Positions 16,645-53,857 of a stretch of 64,000 nt of DNA are shown here, piece by piece (the stretch's first letter is position 1; each line of letters begins with the position of its first letter). The DNA comes from a cyanobacterium endosymbiont of Rhopalodia gibba. Its GTDB lineage: Bacteria; Cyanobacteriota; Cyanobacteriia; Cyanobacteriales; Microcystaceae. The translations under genes were made by a program, and so were the position numbers. The notes beneath the pieces were generated by a model. It had not been told where the DNA came from. It ran no database searches and saw only the letters and a list, made by a program, of their open reading frames with translations. The stretch is taken from positions 1,504,001-1,568,000 of the forward strand of contig CP067995.1 of assembly GCA_045159875.1 (NCBI GenBank). The letters run 5' to 3'.

Positions 16645-17904
16645 TTAATTTGGCTGACGAAAAAGTGCAAAAACAGAAGTATAACCATGTAAAAAAGTTT
16701 GTTCCCCTACCGGGCCAATTTCTCCGTTACAGAAAAAGCCCCCCAAAGGTAGTTGGGGCAAATAACGACGGAACAACCCTGAATCAAAATTTGGCTGGTT
16801 ATAAAGAGCTTCTCCACGTCCTAAACAAGAAAACATTAACGCGCCCTGAACTTTTTTGTCTAGTTCGCCAGAAGTGACATAAGTCCTGAGAAGAAGTTCT
16901 AAATCATCTGCCGAAGTTTTAGCATCGCGCAGATGAAATTGAATCCGTTGACCTGGACGAACGAGATTGCCGATAGCAATCGCCCCTACTCGCGGATCAA
17001 TCCCAACCAAGTGGCGAATCAAAAAATCTCCAGATTGTAAATTGTATTTAAATTCATCGCTAACAACCCCAATGAACAGAGAATGTTTAGCTAATTGACG
17101 ATCATCTTTATCCAACGTTTTAATTAACTCTCTAAGAGATTCTAAAGGAGAGCGATGAACTATGGGTTGAGCCATATTTTCCAGCTTTCCCAACTGTAAA
17201 ATAACATTGCGTCCCCCTTTCGTAATTTGATAGGGCTGACCAATAGGACGACACCCTTGAGCAACAATAGATTCAACTATAATCTTTCCATTCAAGGCTA
17301 GTCCTACAGTTCCCTGATGACATAGCTTAAGCTCTGAACGTTCTGAAGTATAATAAAACAAAGTACTTTGAACATTCATAACCCCTGTACTCGCTAGTCC
17401 ACCAATTTTTACTGAATTTGGGTACGCAAAATCAAGTCCAGCTAATAAATCATTAATTCCTCGGAAAAAGGGATCAGACAAAAGAATAAAATGGGGGTTT
17501 TGTTGAAGAGGAACACCCACAAGTTTACTCCAAGCATCGGGGGGACTGTCGAGATCGGGTAAATTTTCAGGAATAAGATAGAAGGCTTGAACATCAACCT
17601 CCGGTAAGCTAGCAACAGTAAGACTCAGAGCAGGTCCACTTTCAACCTCAATAATTTGGGTAGAATTCTCCACGCCAATTGCTCCCCCGCCACTACAGCC
17701 AATAAGAATGGGTAAAGATAACTTTTCCAGAATTAGGGAAATTAATCTAGAATAATCGCTAGCATATGCCGAAGAAATAAATAAGATACCCAAATCAGGG
17801 GATTGAGATAAAGATTTTTTAACTCTGTCTACAACTTCCGTGACTGCTGCTTCTAGTGATGGACGGATGGATAAAGCATTAACCCACTGCATTTGATTGA
17901 CCAT
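16645..17904 (-). CDS. FIST N/C sensory domain protein
   Basis: VAQGCRPIG, FSCLGRG and GFFCNGEIGP motifs. Confidence 0.92.
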   Translation of the reverse strand: MVNQMQWVNALSIRPSLEAAVTEVVDRVKKSLSQSPDLGILFISSAYASDYSRLISLILEKLSLPILIGCSGGGAIGVENSTQIIEVESGPALSLTVASLPEVDVQAFYLIPENLPDLDSPPDAWSKLVGVPLQQNPHFILLSDPFFRGINDLLAGLDFAYPNSVKIGGLASTGVMNVQSTLFYYTSERSELKLCHQGTVGLALNGKIIVESIVAQGCRPIGQPYQITKGGRNVILQLGKLENMAQPIVHRSPLESLRELIKTLDKDDRQLAKHSLFIGVVSDEFKYNLQSGDFLIRHLVGIDPRVGAIAIGNLVRPGQRIQFHLRDAKTSADDLELLLRTYVTSGELDKKVQGALMFSCLGRGEALYNQPNFDSGLFRRYLPQLPLGGFFCNGEIGPVGEQTFLHGYTSVFALFRQPN

Positions 17905-39551: not shown

Positions 39552-40472
39552 TTAACTATGCTTCATGATAATTGTCAACATCTTCTCCCCTAATATTTTT
39601 GGTTGTTCTATCATAGACATATGACCACAATTAGCCAGTTCAATAACATTACTCCCCTGAACCTCAAAAAGAGGATGAAAACTAGCTAAATAGCGAACAT
39701 ATTTAGGCTCCATTACTGTGTCTTTGTCCCCAGCCAAAAAATAAACAGGTTGTTGCAAACGGGATACTATCTGGGGAAGTAAGTGAACCTCAGTCTCTGT
39801 TGTAGAATCAAGTAAAGATCCCAAAGCAGCTTGAGAATCTGCCTTAAGCAAATCTAGAACCCGTTGTCGTCCCCAACGTCTTTCTAAAGGACGGGCCATC
39901 ATAAGACGAGAGAAAACTACATCAATTAGAGGCACATAAGATAACCAACTGGGTCGATATTTGATTAACCGTTCTCCGGCTGAGCGGAACCGTTCAAATT
40001 CTTCCTTGAGATAAATTCCGCCCCCTGAATTTAGGCAAATAACTCCTTGAACAGTTTCAGGACAAATATCAGCCCCCCACAAGGCAATACTACCCCCCAA
40101 AGAATGGCCAATAAGCCAAGCTCTCTTAATGGCAAATTTTTGTAGGATAACACTTAAATCTTGAGCATAAGCCCCTAAGCTATAAGGAGAGATATTTTTA
40201 GTAAAACTAGGGGGGGCTTGCTGAAACGAAGTTCCCCAATCGATTACCCTGTCTCGATTTAAAGCTTTTCGAACTTGCTGAGAGTCACCAAACCCTCGGA
40301 GATCATAAATTAGACAAGGATAGTTAGGTGCTAATTGCTCAATTAACGGAAACCAATATTGACGGCTCAATAACCATCCATGAATAAAAATCAGTACAGG
40401 GGTAGATGCTTGAAAAGAGGTGGATGTTAGCTCATAGGCGTGAGAAATTCCCAAAATGTCGATGGTTGGCAT
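39552..40472 (-). CDS. Alpha/beta-fold hydrolase
   Basis: FIHGW, YDLRGFGDS, GHSLGG nucleophile elbow, CGH. Confidence 0.92.
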   Translation of the reverse strand: MPTIDILGISHAYELTSTSFQASTPVLIFIHGWLLSRQYWFPLIEQLAPNYPCLIYDLRGFGDSQQVRKALNRDRVIDWGTSFQQAPPSFTKNISPYSLGAYAQDLSVILQKFAIKRAWLIGHSLGGSIALWGADICPETVQGVICLNSGGGIYLKEEFERFRSAGERLIKYRPSWLSYVPLIDVVFSRLMMARPLERRWGRQRVLDLLKADSQAALGSLLDSTTETEVHLLPQIVSRLQQPVYFLAGDKDTVMEPKYVRYLASFHPLFEVQGSNVIELANCGHMSMIEQPKILGEKMLTIIMKHS

Positions 40473-40618: not shown

Positions 40619-41164
40619 ATGGTCTTTTGGAAACGATTATTTAGTAACCCTTCTGATTCAGTCACCTCTGTCCTAATTTCGAAGTTTAACGGAGAACCTC
40701 TAGAAATAAAAGGCGAGACAAACAGTCAACGACGCATTTTCTTAAGTACCGAACGGGACATCAATCTCTACGAACTAGAAAAATTATGTGATGCTGTTGG
40801 CTGGGCGCGTCGTCCTTTACGGAAGGTGAAACAAGCCTTAAATCATAGTTTTCTCGTAGTTTCTATGTGGGAAGTTGAGAAAAATCGGAGGCGCTTGGTT
40901 GGATTTGCCCGTGCAACTTCCGACCATGCTTTTAACGCCACAGTTTGGGACGTGGTTGTCCACCCAAGTTACCAAAATAAGGGACTTGGGAAAGCTTTAA
41001 TCAAATATATGATTAAGAAACTTAGAAATAAGGATATTAGTAATATTACTCTGTTTGCTGATCCTCAGGTAATAGATTTTTATCGTCGTCTGGGATTTGT
41101 TTTAGAACCTGAAGGCATCAAAGGGATGTTTTGGTACCCCAACTTAGACATCTCCAAAAATTAA
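40619..41164 (+). CDS. ycf52: GNAT N-acetyltransferase (Ycf52/NSI-like)
   Basis: [43 protein letters not shown]. Confidence 0.85.
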
Positions 41165-41216
41165 GATTTAACCCTGATGATATGTATGAGGGTTTTAGGT
41201 TAATCTTTGGTAGAGG

Positions 41217-41246
41217 TTGATGATTTTTAAGTATTTAGGCTATAAT
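41217..41246 (+). promoter_or_regulatory. Sigma70-type promoter of tRNA-Pro
   Basis: TTGATG, 18-nt spacer, TATAAT, ending 14 nt before the tRNA. Confidence 0.65.
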
Positions 41247-41260
41247 GAACAGGCGCGATG

Positions 41261-41338
<78 letters not shown>

Positions 41339-41647
41339 AACTGGATTACTTGCAACTGTACTGCCTTTGATGTTCCATCACCTCTATGAATGTAGGTTTG
41401 TTATGATGGGATAAAGTTGGGTAGGAACTAGGTTTTAGCGAATTTCGTCCTACTGTGAGTAGAGAGCCGGTTGCCTGTAAAAAAACTTTTTAATCTCAAC
41501 TACCTCGAGTAGTAAAGTCACTATGAAAACAATAGATTTGTAAGAGATAAATCTTCTAAACCTAAACTTGTGCGAAAAAAATTAGTTCGTTTTTATCGTT
41601 TATTAAGAATATATAAAGTCAATTATAGAATGTGAGGTTAACTTCTT

Positions 41648-42412
41648 ATGAGATCATTCATCCGTAGCAGTATTACTCTAGGATTAGTTGGAGGTTCTGT
41701 TATGATTTATTCTTTGTTAAATTCTAGTCTGAGTGTTTTGGCATTAACTCCAGAACAAATTGTAGAAAAACTCAATCAAATCCCTGTATTTACTATTGGT
41801 AACAGTAAAGAAATACTATTGTCTACTGACAATAACAAAAAAACATTTGTCACTTATCTGAGTCATCAGGATGCTCAGCAGGTTGTTGAGCAAATCACTA
41901 AAGAAAATCCTGAAAGTAAGGTAGAAGTAATTACTATTCCTTTAGGTAAAGTTTATGAATTACTAAAAAATAAGGAAAAAAGTCAATCTCAAGAACCTCC
42001 TGATTTATTCACCTTTATTCCTTTAAAAAAACAACTCCCATCAGCTCTATCAATTCTTAAGCAAGAAAATCCTAGTGCTAAAAATTTTCCTGGAATTCCT
42101 TTATTTTATGGAATGATAAAAGTTGATGAACAAGAGACTTTTCTATCTGTAAAAGATGGAGAGAGAAGTTTTACTCCTTTTTATTTTGAAAGAGAATCTC
42201 TACAGAAATTAATCGAAAATATTAGACTACAACAACCTAAATTTGCTTCATCTATAGAGGTTAAAGTAACTCCATTGGGTGGAATTGTTTCAGCCTTTGA
42301 AAGTAACGACAAGAAACAAGAAGATTTCGTAAAAAGTGTGGTACTCATCCCTTCCCAAGAGTCAGCGAAGAAACTACTAGAAACATTTAAACAAAATCAG
42401 GAAACAAAGTAG
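41648..42412 (+). CDS. tic22: Tic22-family periplasmic chaperone, copy 1
   Basis: Signal peptide ending VLA, then LTPEQIVEKLNQIPVFTI, IPLGKVYE, FPGIPLFY, PFYFERESL. Confidence 0.85.
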   Translation: MRSFIRSSITLGLVGGSVMIYSLLNSSLSVLALTPEQIVEKLNQIPVFTIGNSKEILLSTDNNKKTFVTYLSHQDAQQVVEQITKENPESKVEVITIPLGKVYELLKNKEKSQSQEPPDLFTFIPLKKQLPSALSILKQENPSAKNFPGIPLFYGMIKVDEQETFLSVKDGERSFTPFYFERESLQKLIENIRLQQPKFASSIEVKVTPLGGIVSAFESNDKKQEDFVKSVVLIPSQESAKKLLETFKQNQETK

Positions 42413-42510
42413 GAATGAAAATTCCAGTAATGTCATTAATTTCTTAACACAAAAAACAATTGCCCATCAGTTTTTAAGAAGTATTAGAAGTATTAAATTG
42501 TTATAAAAAT

Positions 42511-43239
42511 ATGAAAACTTTAATTCGTTGGGGTGCTACTCTAGGATTAGTTACTAGTACAGTTTTATGTTTTGGCTTTAAGCCGTCGCGCTCGGCTTTT
42601 GCCTTGCCTCAAGAAGAAATTTTCAAGTTACTCCGTGGAATTCCCGTTTTTATGTTAGTAGACGATAAAAATGTCCCATTGGGAGGGAAAGTAGATGAAA
42701 AAACAGTGTTTACTAACGTTTTTATGAGTAAACAGAATGCCCAAGAATTTTTGCTCCAACTTGGAAAAGACAAACCCGATATTGCCGATCAATATAAAGT
42801 AGAACTTATCTCTTTAGGTGCAATCTATGAGGTTTCTCAAAAAAATTCTAATGAATCCCAGCGATTGGCACTTCAATATATTCCCACTAAAACTGAAGTT
42901 GAGGCTGCTAAGCCTATTCTAAGTGAAGATAGGAAAGAATATAGAGGGGGTGTTCCCCTATATATTCTTAAAGGAGGACCTGAACAAAATTATCTAACAA
43001 TCAAACAAGATGAGGAAACTATTGTTCCTATATTTTTTGAAAAAAAGACAATTCAACAAATTATTAATAACTTAAAACAACAGGAATCTGAGCAAGTTAC
43101 TAATCTTAAAATAGAAGTAATTTTACTGGGAAATTTAATTGGTACTTTGGAAAAAGAAGATAATGAGTTTTTTAGAAAAATTAGGTTATGGCCATCCCAG
43201 GAAATGATGAGAATCATTCAAGAAAATCGCCAAGATTAA
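42511..43239 (+). CDS. tic22: Tic22-family periplasmic chaperone, copy 2
   Basis: MKTLIRWGATLGLV signal ending AFA, then IPVFML, ISLGAIYE, GVPLY, PIFFEKK; directly upstream of prmC as in other cyanobacteria. Confidence 0.87.
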   Translation: MKTLIRWGATLGLVTSTVLCFGFKPSRSAFALPQEEIFKLLRGIPVFMLVDDKNVPLGGKVDEKTVFTNVFMSKQNAQEFLLQLGKDKPDIADQYKVELISLGAIYEVSQKNSNESQRLALQYIPTKTEVEAAKPILSEDRKEYRGGVPLYILKGGPEQNYLTIKQDEETIVPIFFEKKTIQQIINNLKQQESEQVTNLKIEVILLGNLIGTLEKEDNEFFRKIRLWPSQEMMRIIQENRQD

Positions 43240-43247
43240 CGACGCTA

Positions 43248-44171
43248 ATGGAAAATTCGACAGGAGACAGTCAAAAAACTACTGTATCGGGATCGGAGCT
43301 AGCAACTTGGCGAAGTCAGGCTAAAATTGAGTCAATCGTCGCTAATATTTCTCCTGAAGAGGTAGATTGGTTACTTCAAGAAGTAGCAGAGTTAGATCGA
43401 CTTTCATTGAAGTTAGAATTATTTCGGCAGCGATCACAAATTTGCCTGAGATTTTCTTTATCTCACTTGGACCAATTATGGCGGCATCGTCTGAAAGATA
43501 GAGTTCCTATTCAATATCTTGTAGGTGTAACTCCTTGGCGTAACTTTTCACTGAAAGTTGCTCGTGGAGTTTTCATTCCTCGCCCTGAAACCGAGCTGCT
43601 TATTGACTTGGCCGTTCAAGCAGTACAAAAGAGTTCCGTCCCTAACTTAAACTCAGGACATTGGGTGGATTTGGGGACTGGTAGTGGCGCGATTGCAATT
43701 GGATTAGGGATGGTGTTTTCCAAAGCAAAAATCCATGCTGTTGACTATAGTAAAGTCGCTTTAGCTGTTGCTAAAGAAAATGCTAAAAACTTAGGACTTT
43801 CTTCAAAAATCCAATTTTATAAAGGATCATGGTGGACTCCTTTGGAAAAGTTGAAAGGTAAAATTAGTGGGTTAATATCTAATCCTCCTTATATTCCTAC
43901 GAAGATACTGTCTCAACTTCAACCCGAAGTCAGATACCATGAACCATATTTAGCCTTAGATGGAGGCAAAGACGGTTTAGAGGCAATCCGCTATTTAGTA
44001 GATAGTGCTCCTAATTATCTTCAGTCTGGGGGAATTTGGTTAATTGAAATGATGGCGGGTCAGGGAAAAAGTGTAGCTCAATTGTTGAAAGATTCTTCCG
44101 ATTATCATTCTATTGAAATATTGCCAGATTTAGCAGGAATTCAACGTTTTGCCTTAGCTTATCGGACTTAA
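43248..44171 (+). CDS. prmC: Release factor glutamine methyltransferase PrmC/HemK
   Basis: IPRPETE, DLGTGSGAI, SNPPY, LDGG.DGL; start at ATG 43248. Confidence 0.96.
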   Translation: MENSTGDSQKTTVSGSELATWRSQAKIESIVANISPEEVDWLLQEVAELDRLSLKLELFRQRSQICLRFSLSHLDQLWRHRLKDRVPIQYLVGVTPWRNFSLKVARGVFIPRPETELLIDLAVQAVQKSSVPNLNSGHWVDLGTGSGAIAIGLGMVFSKAKIHAVDYSKVALAVAKENAKNLGLSSKIQFYKGSWWTPLEKLKGKISGLISNPPYIPTKILSQLQPEVRYHEPYLALDGGKDGLEAIRYLVDSAPNYLQSGGIWLIEMMAGQGKSVAQLLKDSSDYHSIEILPDLAGIQRFALAYRT

Positions 44172-46066
44172 TTAGACTGTTTAATTAATGTTTCTCTATC
44201 TAAAATTGTTTGTGTTTTTATCCGAATTAATCGGTAAGCAATACTTTCCCCAATAACTTGATAATCAGACGGCTTTAAGGCTAACTGTTCAAAATATTTA
44301 GGTTGAGCCACTATCAAGATAGTCGGTGATATATTTTGGTGATTGGCTTGCTCATTAAAATATTCAATTGCTCTACCACTATAGATATCAGTTTCAGTAA
44401 TAGAATCAACGGTTTGTTGAGTATAATAAGTTATACTCGGACGCATAAAACCAATAAAAACCAACTTTTCCCCTGGCTTTTGTTCTTGTTTTACCAAAGT
44501 TCCAAGTTCTCTTAGAGGAAGTTGTCGTTGACTGTCAACAATCGGAGCAAAAGGAAGTACAACCCAACTAAAAAAAGTAACAAACCCTAATAAATTTGCT
44601 GCCCAAATCCAGCGTCGATGATGTTTCCAGAACAGTAAAATCAAAATACCTAAAGTGGAAAATGACAAAATAATTCCACTATGGATGGGGGCACCTGATT
44701 CTTTTAATAACTCTCTAAAATGAGGCATCATTGAATCATAGCCAATAATTTTAGGGCTGATAACACTTGCAATAGCTAATCCACTTAAAATTCCCGCATT
44801 AGCTAATCCGCTAAGCCAAAATAAAATTGTCCAAATTCCTGACCATTTTTCTCCTTTTGTTGCCATTTGTTCACTCCAAAACAGTGCAACCATAATAGCT
44901 GCAGCTGGTATTAAAGGAAGAACATAACCTGCTAATTTAGTGACTGAACTTGAAAAAAATAAAAATATAACCACAAACCACACTAAAGCGAATAAACCTA
45001 GGTGATTTGAACGATCAGAAGAAACCCAAAGTCTCCGTTTCCAAAAACGTAAACGAGCAATAGCTAATGGCAAGAAAATTGACCAAGGAACTAATCCAAC
45101 TAAGACCACAAAAAAGTAATAATACCATGCCCCAGGGTGGCGACTAACAATACTAGTGAATCTTTGTACATTGTGCAGTCCAAAAAAAGTATTAATATAT
45201 TCTTGACCGTGTTTTAAAGTAATAAGAACAAACCAAGGAACAGTAATAACAATAAAGCTCCCAATTCCCAATAACCAAGGAGTCTCTTTTACTACTTCAA
45301 CTAAGCGCTTAACAAATAACAGAAATACAATGACAATAATCCCTGGGAGGACAATTGCTACAGGACCTTTAGCTAAAACACCTAAGGCCATAAATACCCA
45401 ATATCCCACATACCACCAATTTCTCAAGGATAATCCTAATTGCTTAGTAGAATCCTTTTTAGGATGAGCATAACCAATAAAAAATGAAAGTAATGCTAAT
45501 CCAATATTGCTAGACAAGAACATATCAGAAACCGCTGTTCTTCCCCACGCAATCCAGAAAGGATTAAAAGCAACGATAGCTGCTCCTAAATTAGCTGAAA
45601 ACCATAATTTAGATGGAGCGCTCTGTACTTTCTCTTTTGTGGAAGAGTGGAAAGGTCGAAAGCTAGGAAATCCAAAATTGTGTAAACTGTAAAAACTTAA
45701 ACCTACTAAAGCAATCGCAAATAAAGCCGAGGGAAAACGAGCCGCCCATTCACTGACCCCAAATAGTTTAAAAGATAAAGAGACTAGCCAATAAGTTAAA
45801 GGCGGTTTATCAAAGCGAGTTTCGCCATTCCAATAAGGAGTTAACCAATCTCCTGTTACGTGCATATGACGAGATGTTTCAACAAACATAGGTTCTGTTT
45901 TATCAATTAACCCAATAGCTCCTAAATCCCATAAAAAAGCGATCCAGCTAATTAGTGCCAGCCATAAAATAGAAAATATCCAGAGTATTTTAGAAGATTT
46001 TTTTAAAAAATTATATTTGCCTATAATCTGTTTATACACGTTTATTTTATTCATAAGAATATCCAA
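44168..46066 (-). CDS. ArnT/PMT-like (GT-C) membrane glycosyltransferase
   Basis: TPYWNGETRFDKPPLTYW, AARFPSA, LAKGPVA, HPGAWYYY; many TM helices. Confidence 0.9.
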   Translation of the reverse strand: MDILMNKINVYKQIIGKYNFLKKSSKILWIFSILWLALISWIAFLWDLGAIGLIDKTEPMFVETSRHMHVTGDWLTPYWNGETRFDKPPLTYWLVSLSFKLFGVSEWAARFPSALFAIALVGLSFYSLHNFGFPSFRPFHSSTKEKVQSAPSKLWFSANLGAAIVAFNPFWIAWGRTAVSDMFLSSNIGLALLSFFIGYAHPKKDSTKQLGLSLRNWWYVGYWVFMALGVLAKGPVAIVLPGIIVIVFLLFVKRLVEVVKETPWLLGIGSFIVITVPWFVLITLKHGQEYINTFFGLHNVQRFTSIVSRHPGAWYYYFFVVLVGLVPWSIFLPLAIARLRFWKRRLWVSSDRSNHLGLFALVWFVVIFLFFSSSVTKLAGYVLPLIPAAAIMVALFWSEQMATKGEKWSGIWTILFWLSGLANAGILSGLAIASVISPKIIGYDSMMPHFRELLKESGAPIHSGIILSFSTLGILILLFWKHHRRWIWAANLLGFVTFFSWVVLPFAPIVDSQRQLPLRELGTLVKQEQKPGEKLVFIGFMRPSITYYTQQTVDSITETDIYSGRAIEYFNEQANHQNISPTILIVAQPKYFEQLALKPSDYQVIGESIAYRLIRIKTQTILDRETLIKQSN

Positions 46067-51827: not shown

Positions 51828-52817
51828 TTAACTTGTTAGTAAAGATTTTAATTCCTCAGTAGTTAAACGAGGTCCATAATTAGTAACAATACGAGAAGAA
51901 GCCCGTGAAGCGAGATCGCCGGCTTGGCTATAGGTCATACCATGGGTGATTCCATAAAGAAATGCTCCCGCATACATATCTCCTGCGCCAACGGTATCAA
52001 TAGCCCGGACGGGATAGGGAGCAATTTCAATTAATACCTGACCATCAAAAACTAATGATCCCTTCGAGCCACAGGTGATAGCAAACCCCTTAGCTATAGT
52101 TTTTAAATAGGCGATTATCTCGGAAACATCTTTCGTATTAGATATTTTTTCGGCTTCTGCTTGATTAGCAAAAATAAAATCTAACCCAGAGCCAATAATC
52201 TTTAATAGCCCATTTTTAAAAAACTCCACTATGTTTGGATCAGATAAGGAAAAAGTGGTTTTTACCCCTGAAGTTTTTGCAATTTCCCTAGCTTTAATGG
52301 CTGCTGCTTGAGCAGTTGGGGAAGTGACTAAATATCCTTCTAAATAAAGATATTCAGAGTCAGAGATTGCTTCGAAGATTAATTCTTGTTCGGATAAATT
52401 GCTCGAAATACCTAAAAATGTATTCATGGTGCGATCAGCATCGGGAGTCACCATAACTATGCATTTTCCAGTGCTTTCCTTTTCGCTATCATCATTGTGT
52501 TCATTAGTGTCTAACCCACACTTGCGTAGATCTTCCAAATAAAATTTTCCTGCTTCATCCGCCGCCACTTTACAAGAATAAAACCCGTTACCACCGAATT
52601 GACTAAGAGCTATCATGGTGTTAGCAGCAGAGCCTCCACTACTTTGCTTACACGGTTGTCCATTAAGTTTTTTTAGTAACTTCTCTTGATGGACTTTATC
52701 CACCAGAGTCATGACACCTTTATCGATGTTTAATACTTGAAGTAATTCTGGTGAAACTTTAAATTCTATATCTACTAAAGCGTTACCAACACCATAAACA
52801 TGATATTTTTTCTCCAT
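51828..52817 (-). CDS. PfkB-family carbohydrate kinase (adenosine kinase-like)
   Basis: GNALVD, SGGSAANT, YLEGY, DTVGAGDMYAGAF; start at MEKKYH. Confidence 0.92.
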   Translation of the reverse strand: MEKKYHVYGVGNALVDIEFKVSPELLQVLNIDKGVMTLVDKVHQEKLLKKLNGQPCKQSSGGSAANTMIALSQFGGNGFYSCKVAADEAGKFYLEDLRKCGLDTNEHNDDSEKESTGKCIVMVTPDADRTMNTFLGISSNLSEQELIFEAISDSEYLYLEGYLVTSPTAQAAAIKAREIAKTSGVKTTFSLSDPNIVEFFKNGLLKIIGSGLDFIFANQAEAEKISNTKDVSEIIAYLKTIAKGFAITCGSKGSLVFDGQVLIEIAPYPVRAIDTVGAGDMYAGAFLYGITHGMTYSQAGDLASRASSRIVTNYGPRLTTEELKSLLTS

Positions 52818-53857
52818 GAATACTTTCTTGTCTAACGACAAACCTCTAAAATGTTCAATCATATTTTAGGACAACATAGAGCATTCGCATTATAACTTTA
52901 GTGAATTGAGCAGTAAACAAGATTTAATACAAGCTACCAATTAAGGTCAAGAGAAACTATTTTTATAATGTTAATTAATGTAGTTTTTTTAAAAAAATAA
53001 AAGTAGCTAAACTCCATAATTATCTTGTCTGAAATTTATTGTGTAATTGGTTGATAATATTTTAGAGATACATGACTAAATCAATTAAACTTTTACAAAA
53101 ACCGATTAAAATTATTTCAGACTTGGAATCATTGAATAAAAATAAAATACTATAAACTATTTTTATGACTTTAATAATAACTTAATCTTCAAGGTTAAAG
53201 GGTCTTGAAGTTAAGGAAAGTTACTCTACAAAAAAATACTCAAAAAATCTTTAAATTAAGAAATAATGGCGATATAGATAAAAATTCTTGATCTTATCTA
53301 TTAAACATAATCCTAAAAAGACAACAATATTTGCTAATCAAAATGTAGGTATTCGAGCTAAAATATAAACATTTTGACTATAAAATAGATATCAATACTA
53401 ACTACAAATGATCTTTTTAACGAGATTATTAACGACTTTTTAAAACTACTTAGTTAAAAAGTTAAGTAAAATATAGCAATAGCAGCTAAGTAGAACTAGT
53501 GCGGCTTTAATCTTACTGTCAATAGGCTAAGTTAAACTTTCTATTACTGTTGATAAGCTTATTCTAATTGAGAATAGTAATAATTTTGTTATTTCTAGTT
53601 TAGAAGAGCTAGAATCATCAAAAGATTGTCATTGTTTTTAGTTACGTAAATTGTCCGTTCTTTAATCTAAGGTTTATTCATCTACAGAAACTACAGTTAT
53701 TTAATAGACTTACATAATCGCTTCTCTTGTTTATTCATGATTCAAAAACAAAGGAGAAAAAACAGATACTACAATTTCTGCCTTCTCTCCCTATGTAAGT
53801 CTTAAGTGACTTAAGGCTAAATACTACTAATTTTTACTACCAGATACCTAAACAATG

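Follow-up and report, generated by a model that had tools for sequence, protein, structure and literature searches.

Among the closest described counterparts of the genes discussed here is Tic22 of the cyanobacterium Anabaena. Passages of Kasmati et al. (2013, PMC3652856, citing Tripp 2012) place it in the periplasm and in the thylakoids and report that it forms cross-links with Omp85 and that a plant orthologue can stand in for it. A passage of a second paper (PMC9705863, citing Brouwer 2019) states that Tic22 'acts as periplasmic shuttle' and describes a tic22 mutant with outer-membrane defects and sensitivity to lysozyme and salts. We analyzed two Tic22-family genes that lie in tandem in a cyanobacterial endosymbiont of Rhopalodia gibba, within a stretch of 64,000 nucleotides (hereafter the window; contig CP067995.1, positions 1,504,001 to 1,568,000 of the forward strand). 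All coordinates given below without a genome label are positions in the window, and the genome that holds it, G000, measures 3.06 Mb (3,064,642 bases in two contigs). Our results make it very likely that the two genes encode inherited, Sec-exported periplasmic Tic22 chaperones of two old classes, which are both still needed and serve Omp85. The assignment to the family, the fold, the signal-peptide features, the synteny and orthology, the selection on both genes and the presence of Omp85 come from this analysis; holdase activity, the hand-over to Omp85 and any division of labor between the two proteins would follow by analogy with other members of the family.

We named the upstream copy A (41648 to 42412, forward strand, 254 amino acids) and the downstream copy, which adjoins prmC, B (42511 to 43239, forward strand, 242 amino acids). 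An earlier reading of the sequence, here called the original prediction, had described two adjacent full-length open reading frames (ORFs) between tRNA-Pro and prmC, and both are found at exactly the positions it gave. Its assignment of both to Tic22 is borne out by Pfam PF04278 (gathering cut-off 23 bits), which matches A with 92.2 bits (E 4e-26, model positions 44-240 of 244) and B with 101 bits (E 8.5e-29, model positions 44-239 of 244). The four Tic22 motifs that it listed can all be read in both translations: IPVF occurs unchanged in A and B, LGxxYE as LGKVYE and LGAIYE, G[IV]PL[FY] as GIPLF and GVPLY, and PxxFE as PFYFE and PIFFE, respectively. The strong divergence that it noted corresponds to 30% identity over 248 columns, and no further Tic22 match occurs in the whole 3.06-Mb genome. 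Its statement that neither copy is decaying also stands, as both genes are free of internal stops and align over their full length with chain A of the Anabaena structure (4ev1_A; E 6.3e-16 over residues 33-242 of A and E 1.7e-15 over residues 33-236 of B). AlphaFold2 models built on a 58-sequence Tic22 alignment reach a mean predicted local distance difference test score (pLDDT) of 84.6 for A and 85.1 for B, with a predicted template modeling score of 0.80 for both, and pLDDT drops below 50 only at the N-terminus (residues 1-29 of A and 1-28 of B).

When these models were compared with known structures using Foldseek, the only matches at E <= 0.001 for either protein were the Tic22 structures 4ev1, 8xks_I, 4e6z and 8xqw_Q, and the next-best matches had E >= 0.02. 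As modeled, both proteins carry the Tic22 fold. Against TIGR00995, the chloroplast Tic22 importer subfamily, A scored 96.9 and B 136.5 bits, far under the cut-off of 413.15, which places both as homologues of the plastid subfamily and not as members of it. We also considered that A might be closer to plastid Tic22 than B, since phmmer aligned 8xks_I with A at E 3.2e-12 and with B at E 7.8e-3. This idea was dropped because TIGR00995 scores B higher and the Foldseek values are alike.

The original prediction had read a Sec-type signal peptide in each protein, and the corresponding features are present in both when judged by rules of thumb (charge, hydrophobic core and -3/-1 site) rather than by a trained predictor. 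The predicted signal peptide of A comprises residues 1-32 (41648 to 41743, forward strand), with putative cleavage between VLA and L, and that of B residues 1-31 (42511 to 42603, forward strand), with putative cleavage between AFA and L; in each case small residues occupy the -3 and -1 sites. The n-region carries a charge of +2 (two basic residues) in A as well as in B, and the mean Kyte-Doolittle value of the 12-residue hydrophobic window is 2.02 in A and 1.84 in B. In the 58-sequence alignment the columns of A32 and L33 of A are nearly invariant and invariant, respectively, and A31 and L32 of B are conserved. These N-terminal features strongly suggest that A and B are exported by the Sec pathway. 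We compared charge and isoelectric point of the mature proteins and saw no class-specific signal; the endosymbiont copies of both A and B are somewhat more basic than the copies of the relatives G002 and G005, which lysine gain driven by high A+T content would account for.

A candidate partner is encoded in the same genome. G000 has one PF01103 match, a 794-residue ORF (G000:C1:327816-330197) whose POTRA domains span approximately residues 194-456 and whose barrel starts at residue 457. This is the only Omp85-superfamily match in G000, compared with three in G007, five in G002 and five in G051. A complex prediction for the Omp85 POTRA region (residues 190-456) and mature Tic22A (residues 33-254), done for A only with alignments of 26 rows (Omp85 POTRA) and 58 rows (Tic22A), returned no answer (score 0.00) and counts as evidence neither way.

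From these elements and by analogy with Anabaena Tic22, a mechanism can be proposed. Both A and B would be exported through Sec to the periplasm, where each would act as an ATP-independent holdase and move unfolded outer-membrane (beta-barrel) proteins from the Sec exit at the plasma membrane across the periplasm. The clients would then be handed over to the POTRA domains of the single Omp85/BamA kept by the genome. At their low identity, A and B would probably have different clients or work in different compartments, and this division of labor would have been fixed long before endosymbiosis and be unrelated to the import of host proteins.

One version of such a division, in which one class serves Omp85 in the periplasm and the other works in the thylakoid lumen or on the plasma-membrane side, as the presence of Anabaena Tic22 in both places might suggest, appears unlikely on balance. 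The N-termini of the two window proteins are similarly Sec-type, and cyanobacteria use such N-termini for both periplasmic and thylakoid destinations; the sequences offer nothing that would distinguish one destination from the other. Both classes retain each of the 7 columns that are invariant across the 58 aligned sequences (among the 12 nearly invariant columns, those of A32 and P46 of A were checked), and one gene is enough for most of the family. In favor of this version, isolated diazoplasts retain thylakoids according to a figure legend of Frail et al. (2025, PMC12377750).

The interpretation of A and B as inherited Tic22 chaperones of two old classes is supported by their distribution. 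Tic22 was present in all 31 related genomes that we scanned, and in a survey of the whole family it was matched in 86 of 89 genomes, the remaining three being only 71-81% complete. A single copy is found in 58 of these 86 genomes, and at least two copies in 28 of the 89 genomes and in 7 of the 19 genera. Tandem copies, defined as lying within 3 kb on one contig, occur in 24 of the 89 genomes, and two genomes (G053 and G054) have three Tic22 genes in tandem. Two matches in G082 that share one frame, broken by a TGA, were counted as one gene; this lone Tic22 (G082:C67:41869-42515) is possibly a pseudogene, or its internal TGA a sequencing error.

Within the genus, a tandem of two Tic22 genes is found in each of the seven other genomes, which measure 2.5 to 5.2 Mb. 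Orthologues of A are 62-92% identical to the window's A in G001-G006, and orthologues of B are 59-91% identical to the window's B in G001-G007. The A orthologues include those of the endosymbionts of Epithemia turgida, Rhopalodia gibberula and Epithemia clementina (92, 92 and 81% identical, respectively) and that of 'Cyanobacterium sp. uoEpiScrs1' (71%). The order A-B-prmC is also found in two much larger genomes, G002 (5.2 Mb, A and B both 76% identical to the window copies) and G005 (4.6 Mb, 62% and 61%). G002 has the photosystem II (PSII) reaction-centre genes psbA/psbD (7 matches) and nifH, which identifies it as a photosynthetic genome of ordinary size. Since photosynthetic large-genome relatives carry A and B at the equivalent site, the pair in the endosymbiont reflects ordinary inheritance.

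The surroundings of the genes are conserved as well. The full order of an alpha/beta-hydrolase gene on the reverse strand, a GNAT acetyltransferase gene, tRNA-Pro, Tic22 and prmC recurs in four sister endosymbiont genomes, in G008 and G021 (two Tic22 copies) and in G038 and G056 (single copy). The hydrolase and acetyltransferase flank is also syntenic in G001, G003, G004, G006, G008, G021, G038, G053, G054 and G056, and a tRNA-Pro lies at the equivalent position in these ten genomes and in G027. Of the 30 genomes whose loci we examined, 24 have Tic22 as the gene immediately upstream of prmC (all but G031-G033, G053, G054 and G085). This synteny across relatives indicates that a slot composed of tRNA-Pro, one to three Tic22 genes and prmC is ancestral in the family, and that the array has both grown and shrunk.

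To these data the maximum-likelihood tree of 66 Tic22 proteins adds four classes; the tree includes part of the family members from the 89-genome survey, and four long-branched rows of other families (G023, G024, G028 and G030) were left out beforehand. Class B (support 100/100) comprises the prmC-adjoining copy in genera g1-g5. To class B' (100/95) belong the copies lying upstream in G011 and in the g3 genomes G009, G040, G051 and G052, a separate gene in g4 and the sole copy in g25. Class A (96/85) unites the copies that lie upstream in G000-G006 with the middle gene of the G053 and G054 arrays and the single copy of G013, and class A' (100/99) holds the gene that opens the arrays of G053 and G054, the one lying upstream in G008 and the unlinked third copy of G009. 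Within class A, all copies from G000-G006 group in one clade (100/100); the class B copies from G000-G007 likewise group together (100/98), inside the family-wide B clade (100/100). In the A clade G005 and then G002 branch off before the five small genomes, and the B copies branch likewise. Classes A and B would thus be old paralogues that arose by tandem duplication in the slot between tRNA-Pro and prmC, long before the symbiosis with diatoms.

The upstream copy of G007 differs in that it groups beside the B' members, within a clade that holds B and B' (99/90). We considered whether A could be a fast-evolving orthologue of this copy. An approximately unbiased test rejects the grouping of the eight g1 upstream copies (57.2 log-likelihood units worse, p 3.6e-6), with the reservation that the group was named after the tree had been viewed and that long branches are involved. 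The simplest history would have a genus ancestor with A, B' and B, from which A was lost on the line to G007 and B' on the line toward G005, G002 and the endosymbionts.

Two further observations concern the diversity of the family. Genus g8 (G014 and G034; loci L042 and L056) has a tandem Tic22 duplication of its own, whose prmC-adjoining copy sits on a very long stem (1.18 changes per column); this duplicate diverges fast and arose independently of classes A and B. In addition, an ENA contig of 3,097,436 bp (P0010) encodes an A-type Tic22 that is 60% identical to the window's A and 53% to that of G005, and may come from a further small-genome relative.

We measured selection on A and B using as controls seven genes of the window (those for an S41 peptidase, FtsQ, DUF3177, FIST, PfkB, PAP2 and PrmC). 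Left out were the pfkB rows of G003 and G004 (in-frame TAA), FIST of G004 and PAP2 of G005 (no orthologue found), and G007 for A (no A-type copy). Across the five small endosymbiont genomes, the maximum-likelihood estimate of omega (dN/dS; GY+F3X4) was 0.190 for A and 0.159 for B, and 0.079-0.228 for the seven controls. Pairwise NG86 estimates ranged over 0.10-0.30 for A and 0.09-0.27 for B, with medians of 0.228 and 0.174, respectively, and of 0.076-0.208 for the controls. As a measure of rate we took the ratio between the mean LG path to the small genomes and the path to G002, both from their shared node. A reaches a ratio of 3.41 and B one of 3.33, and the controls give 1.67, 1.70, 1.72, 2.03, 2.85, 3.02 and 4.68. 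These omega and rate values show that A and B are under clear purifying selection, and that they have sped up along with the endosymbiont lineage as a whole, without leaving the control range. Both genes are intact and of full length in all five small genomes, and 10 of the 11 members of the cluster formed with A at 90% identity measure 251-254 residues. Given the purifying selection, the cautious proposal of the original prediction that both copies are needed is reasonable, and both would still be kept in the endosymbiont for this reason.

Several observations weigh against the interpretation of two old classes that are both still needed. The median pairwise omega of A is the highest among the nine genes, A being the faster of the two copies, and the 3.3-3.4-fold acceleration of A and B lies in the upper half of the seven controls, so that a modest extra shift is possible. 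In G004 the copies are 71% (A) and 86% (B) identical to those of the window, and pairs that include G004 give an omega of 0.22-0.30 for A and 0.09-0.19 for B. The eleventh member of the 90% cluster of A, encoded on an NCBI contig of 3,106,524 bp (P0031), measures only 206 residues; it is 99% identical to the window's A and 48 residues short, which may mean that A is dispensable in some line or in early decay, or may come from an error of assembly or annotation. As for the age of the classes, support for their deep relations is weak (93/85) in a part of the tree where long branches come together, so that A and A' may be either ancient paralogues or fast-evolving duplicates. Finally, in the RNA-library runs X1 and X3 the whole 4-kb stretch lies inside contigs of 13-17 kb, which are unable to show transcription. 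Two runs of another study (X5 and X6) yielded short contigs of 90-99% likeness over parts of both genes, a weak hint that A and B are transcribed. The name 'Tic22' does not occur in the supplement files examined of PMC12377750 and PMC11131595, whose identifier-only tables could still hold both proteins.

Some of these points would fit an explanation in which the two copies are redundant, the second being carried along as a passenger until genome reduction eliminates it. A single copy evidently suffices in most of the family genomes with Tic22, the truncated A product occurs in one close relative, and the two long-kept paralogues of land plants, Tic22-III and Tic22-IV, are judged unlikely to differ much in function in the passage concerned of PMC3652856. 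However, an omega of 0.16-0.19 for both copies across five lineages implies that neither is drifting neutrally, both have remained of full length in every small genome while their neighbors decayed, and an identity of 30% between classes that are older than the genus fits redundancy poorly. We therefore regard this explanation as distinctly unlikely.

The comparison with other nitrogen-fixing endosymbionts bears on the question of protein import. Genus g25 comprises three genomes of 1.4-1.5 Mb, which have no PSII reaction-centre genes (0 of 3) and all have nifH, and which we infer from this combination to be UCYN-A-like. Each of the three has one Tic22, of class B' and not adjoining prmC, and one of them, G032, has one Omp85-superfamily match. 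According to passages of Frail et al. (PMC12377750), 368 host-encoded proteins were counted for UCYN-A and 450 for the Paulinella chromatophore, and only 6 candidates were detected in the diazoplast of E. clementina at similar proteome coverage. The lineage with two Tic22 genes thus imports little or nothing and a lineage with high import has one, which is the opposite of what a role of the pair in host-protein import would predict. When a young nitrogen-fixing endosymbiont has two copies of Tic22, this is therefore no indication that organelle-type import is emerging.

The original prediction had speculated on such a role, with one copy possibly a step toward import. A link between the pair and the symbiosis is not supported, and what the original prediction itself had named as refuting it (the same tandem in free-living relatives, with no rate shift on the symbiont branch) agrees with our results: the tandem of A and B also occurs in G002 and G005, tandem pairs are spread over 24 of the 89 family genomes, and the path ratios of 3.41 and 3.33 fall within the 1.67-4.68 of the controls. 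Its own more sober alternative, that the pair may simply be inherited, is what phylogeny and synteny show. The recruitment of one paralogue for trafficking at the host interface, as an early step to Tic22-assisted import of host proteins, is thus highly improbable. In its favor, plastid Tic22 works in import (as stated in a passage of PMC3652856), both copies are kept in all five reduced genomes while Omp85-family matches fall from 3-5 to 1, and A outpaces B to some degree, above all in G004. Against it, the same pair occurs in photosynthetic large-genome relatives, rates and omega stay within the control range, and the UCYN-A-like genomes manage with a single Tic22 yet 368 imported proteins are reported there, against 6 candidates in the diazoplast.

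Returning to A and B as inherited chaperones, we can ask what their different fates in the two symbioses mean. It is quite unlikely that the Tic22 classes are functionally distinct chaperones, each with its own clients or compartment, and that two independent nitrogen-fixing endosymbioses from one cyanobacterial family kept A and B in one case (the rhopalodiacean diazoplasts) and B' alone in the other (the UCYN-A-like genomes) through different remodeling of the envelope. If true, the paralogue that is kept would mark which routes of outer-membrane or lumen biogenesis an endosymbiont still runs by itself.

The neighbors of the pair complete the picture of the locus. Upstream of it lie the alpha/beta-hydrolase gene (39552 to 40472, reverse strand; Pfam Abhydrolase_1, E 7.7e-26) and the GNAT acetyltransferase gene (40619 to 41164, forward strand; Pfam Acetyltransf_1, E 2.6e-17), which form the conserved flank, followed by the tRNA-Pro gene (anticodon TGG; 41261 to 41335, forward strand; ARAGORN), which forms the upstream edge of the Tic22 slot. 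Downstream, prmC (43188 to 44171, forward strand) encodes the release-factor N5-glutamine methyltransferase and matches the NCBIfam PrmC equivalog TIGR03534 with 218.1 bits (cut-off 199.1). As listed, this ORF starts at an ATG located 52 nucleotides inside B. The TIGR03534 match begins only at ORF residue 59, and the orthologues in G001 and G006 (307 and 309 residues) are approximately 20 codons shorter and start right after the stop of Tic22B. The true start of prmC is probably the ATG at 43248, just past the stop of B.

We scanned positions 41100-44300 for promoters and terminators. The scan returned 6 promoter-like sites, compared with 9.5 expected from shuffled sequences, and no terminator-like sites between A, B and prmC. 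The absence of such a site, together with the start of prmC right after the stop of B in G001 and G006, makes a shared A-B-prmC transcript plausible; the layout is compatible with an operon and is not evidence for one.

The description of the genome as one that is shedding genes, given in the original prediction, also fits. The 64 kb of the window contain 25 ORFs of at least 200 residues, and G+C content falls to 0.22-0.25 in the 2-kb bins starting at 1, 6001, 12001, 26001, 34001, 58001 and 62001, compared with 0.33-0.40 in gene-rich bins. The small number of long ORFs and the low-G+C bins fit large stretches of decayed, non-coding DNA, and a low coding density with raised pseudogene content is described for the spheroid-body genome in passages of Abresch et al. 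(2024, PMC11131595). Some neighboring genes are disrupted in sister genomes or could not be found there. The gene for a PfkB-family kinase (51828 to 52862) is intact in the window and has one in-frame TAA each in G003 and G004, showing that gene decay proceeds independently among sister endosymbionts. The FIST-domain gene (16645 to 17904) was found with our query in 7 of the 8 genus genomes searched, G000 included, and not in G004 (2.5 Mb).

As genes, these copies are already known, since relatives of A are annotated as 'Tic22 family protein' in public records of rhopalodiacean endosymbionts. In open-access papers and preprints we found none that links Tic22 with 'spheroid body', 'Epithemia' or 'UCYN-A', and co-mentions of Tic22 and Cyanothece came, where examined, from unrelated passages. 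What emerges from the comparison is that the slot between tRNA-Pro and prmC is a changeable array of 1-3 Tic22 genes of at least four classes, different classes having been lost in different lines. This variable array and the differing retention in two nitrogen-fixing endosymbioses make a minor comparative note that we did not find in print, and the pattern of class loss could guide work on what separates the Tic22 paralogues.

The pair of the window shares some features with each of the known Tic22 systems and differs from them in others. Tic22 of Chlamydomonas, a component of Orf2971/Ycf2-FtsHi motor complexes (PDB 8XKS and 8XQW), shares the fold of A and B (Foldseek E 1e-12 to 1e-14, probability 1.00); it differs in being part of a plastid import motor complex. 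Tic22-III and Tic22-IV of land plants are likewise two long-kept paralogues, with similar evolutionary rates according to a passage of PMC3652856, but they stem from an independent, eukaryotic duplication, are encoded in the nucleus and act in plastid import. A further counterpart is Tic22 of Anabaena sp. PCC 7120 (alr0114; PDB 4EV1), which belongs to the same Pfam family and whose periplasmic architecture with a signal peptide A and B would match through their predicted signal peptides. Its fold agrees with that of both window proteins (Foldseek E 3.3e-16 for A and 2.1e-19 for B, TM 0.66-0.78) and an Omp85 partner is encoded in the genome of the window too; identity in the structural alignment is only 23-24%, and the window has two diverged tandem copies. 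The tandem arrays of the free-living relatives (G002, G005, G007, G008, G011, G021, G040, G051, G053 and G054), composed of 1-3 copies, share both locus and orientation with the window. They differ in composition, which is B' and B in G007 and in the g3 genomes G009, G040, G051 and G052, A' and B in G008, and A', A and a third copy in G053 and G054, whereas the UCYN-A-like genomes have B' alone and away from prmC. In G002 and G005 the combination of A and B is identical to that of the window.

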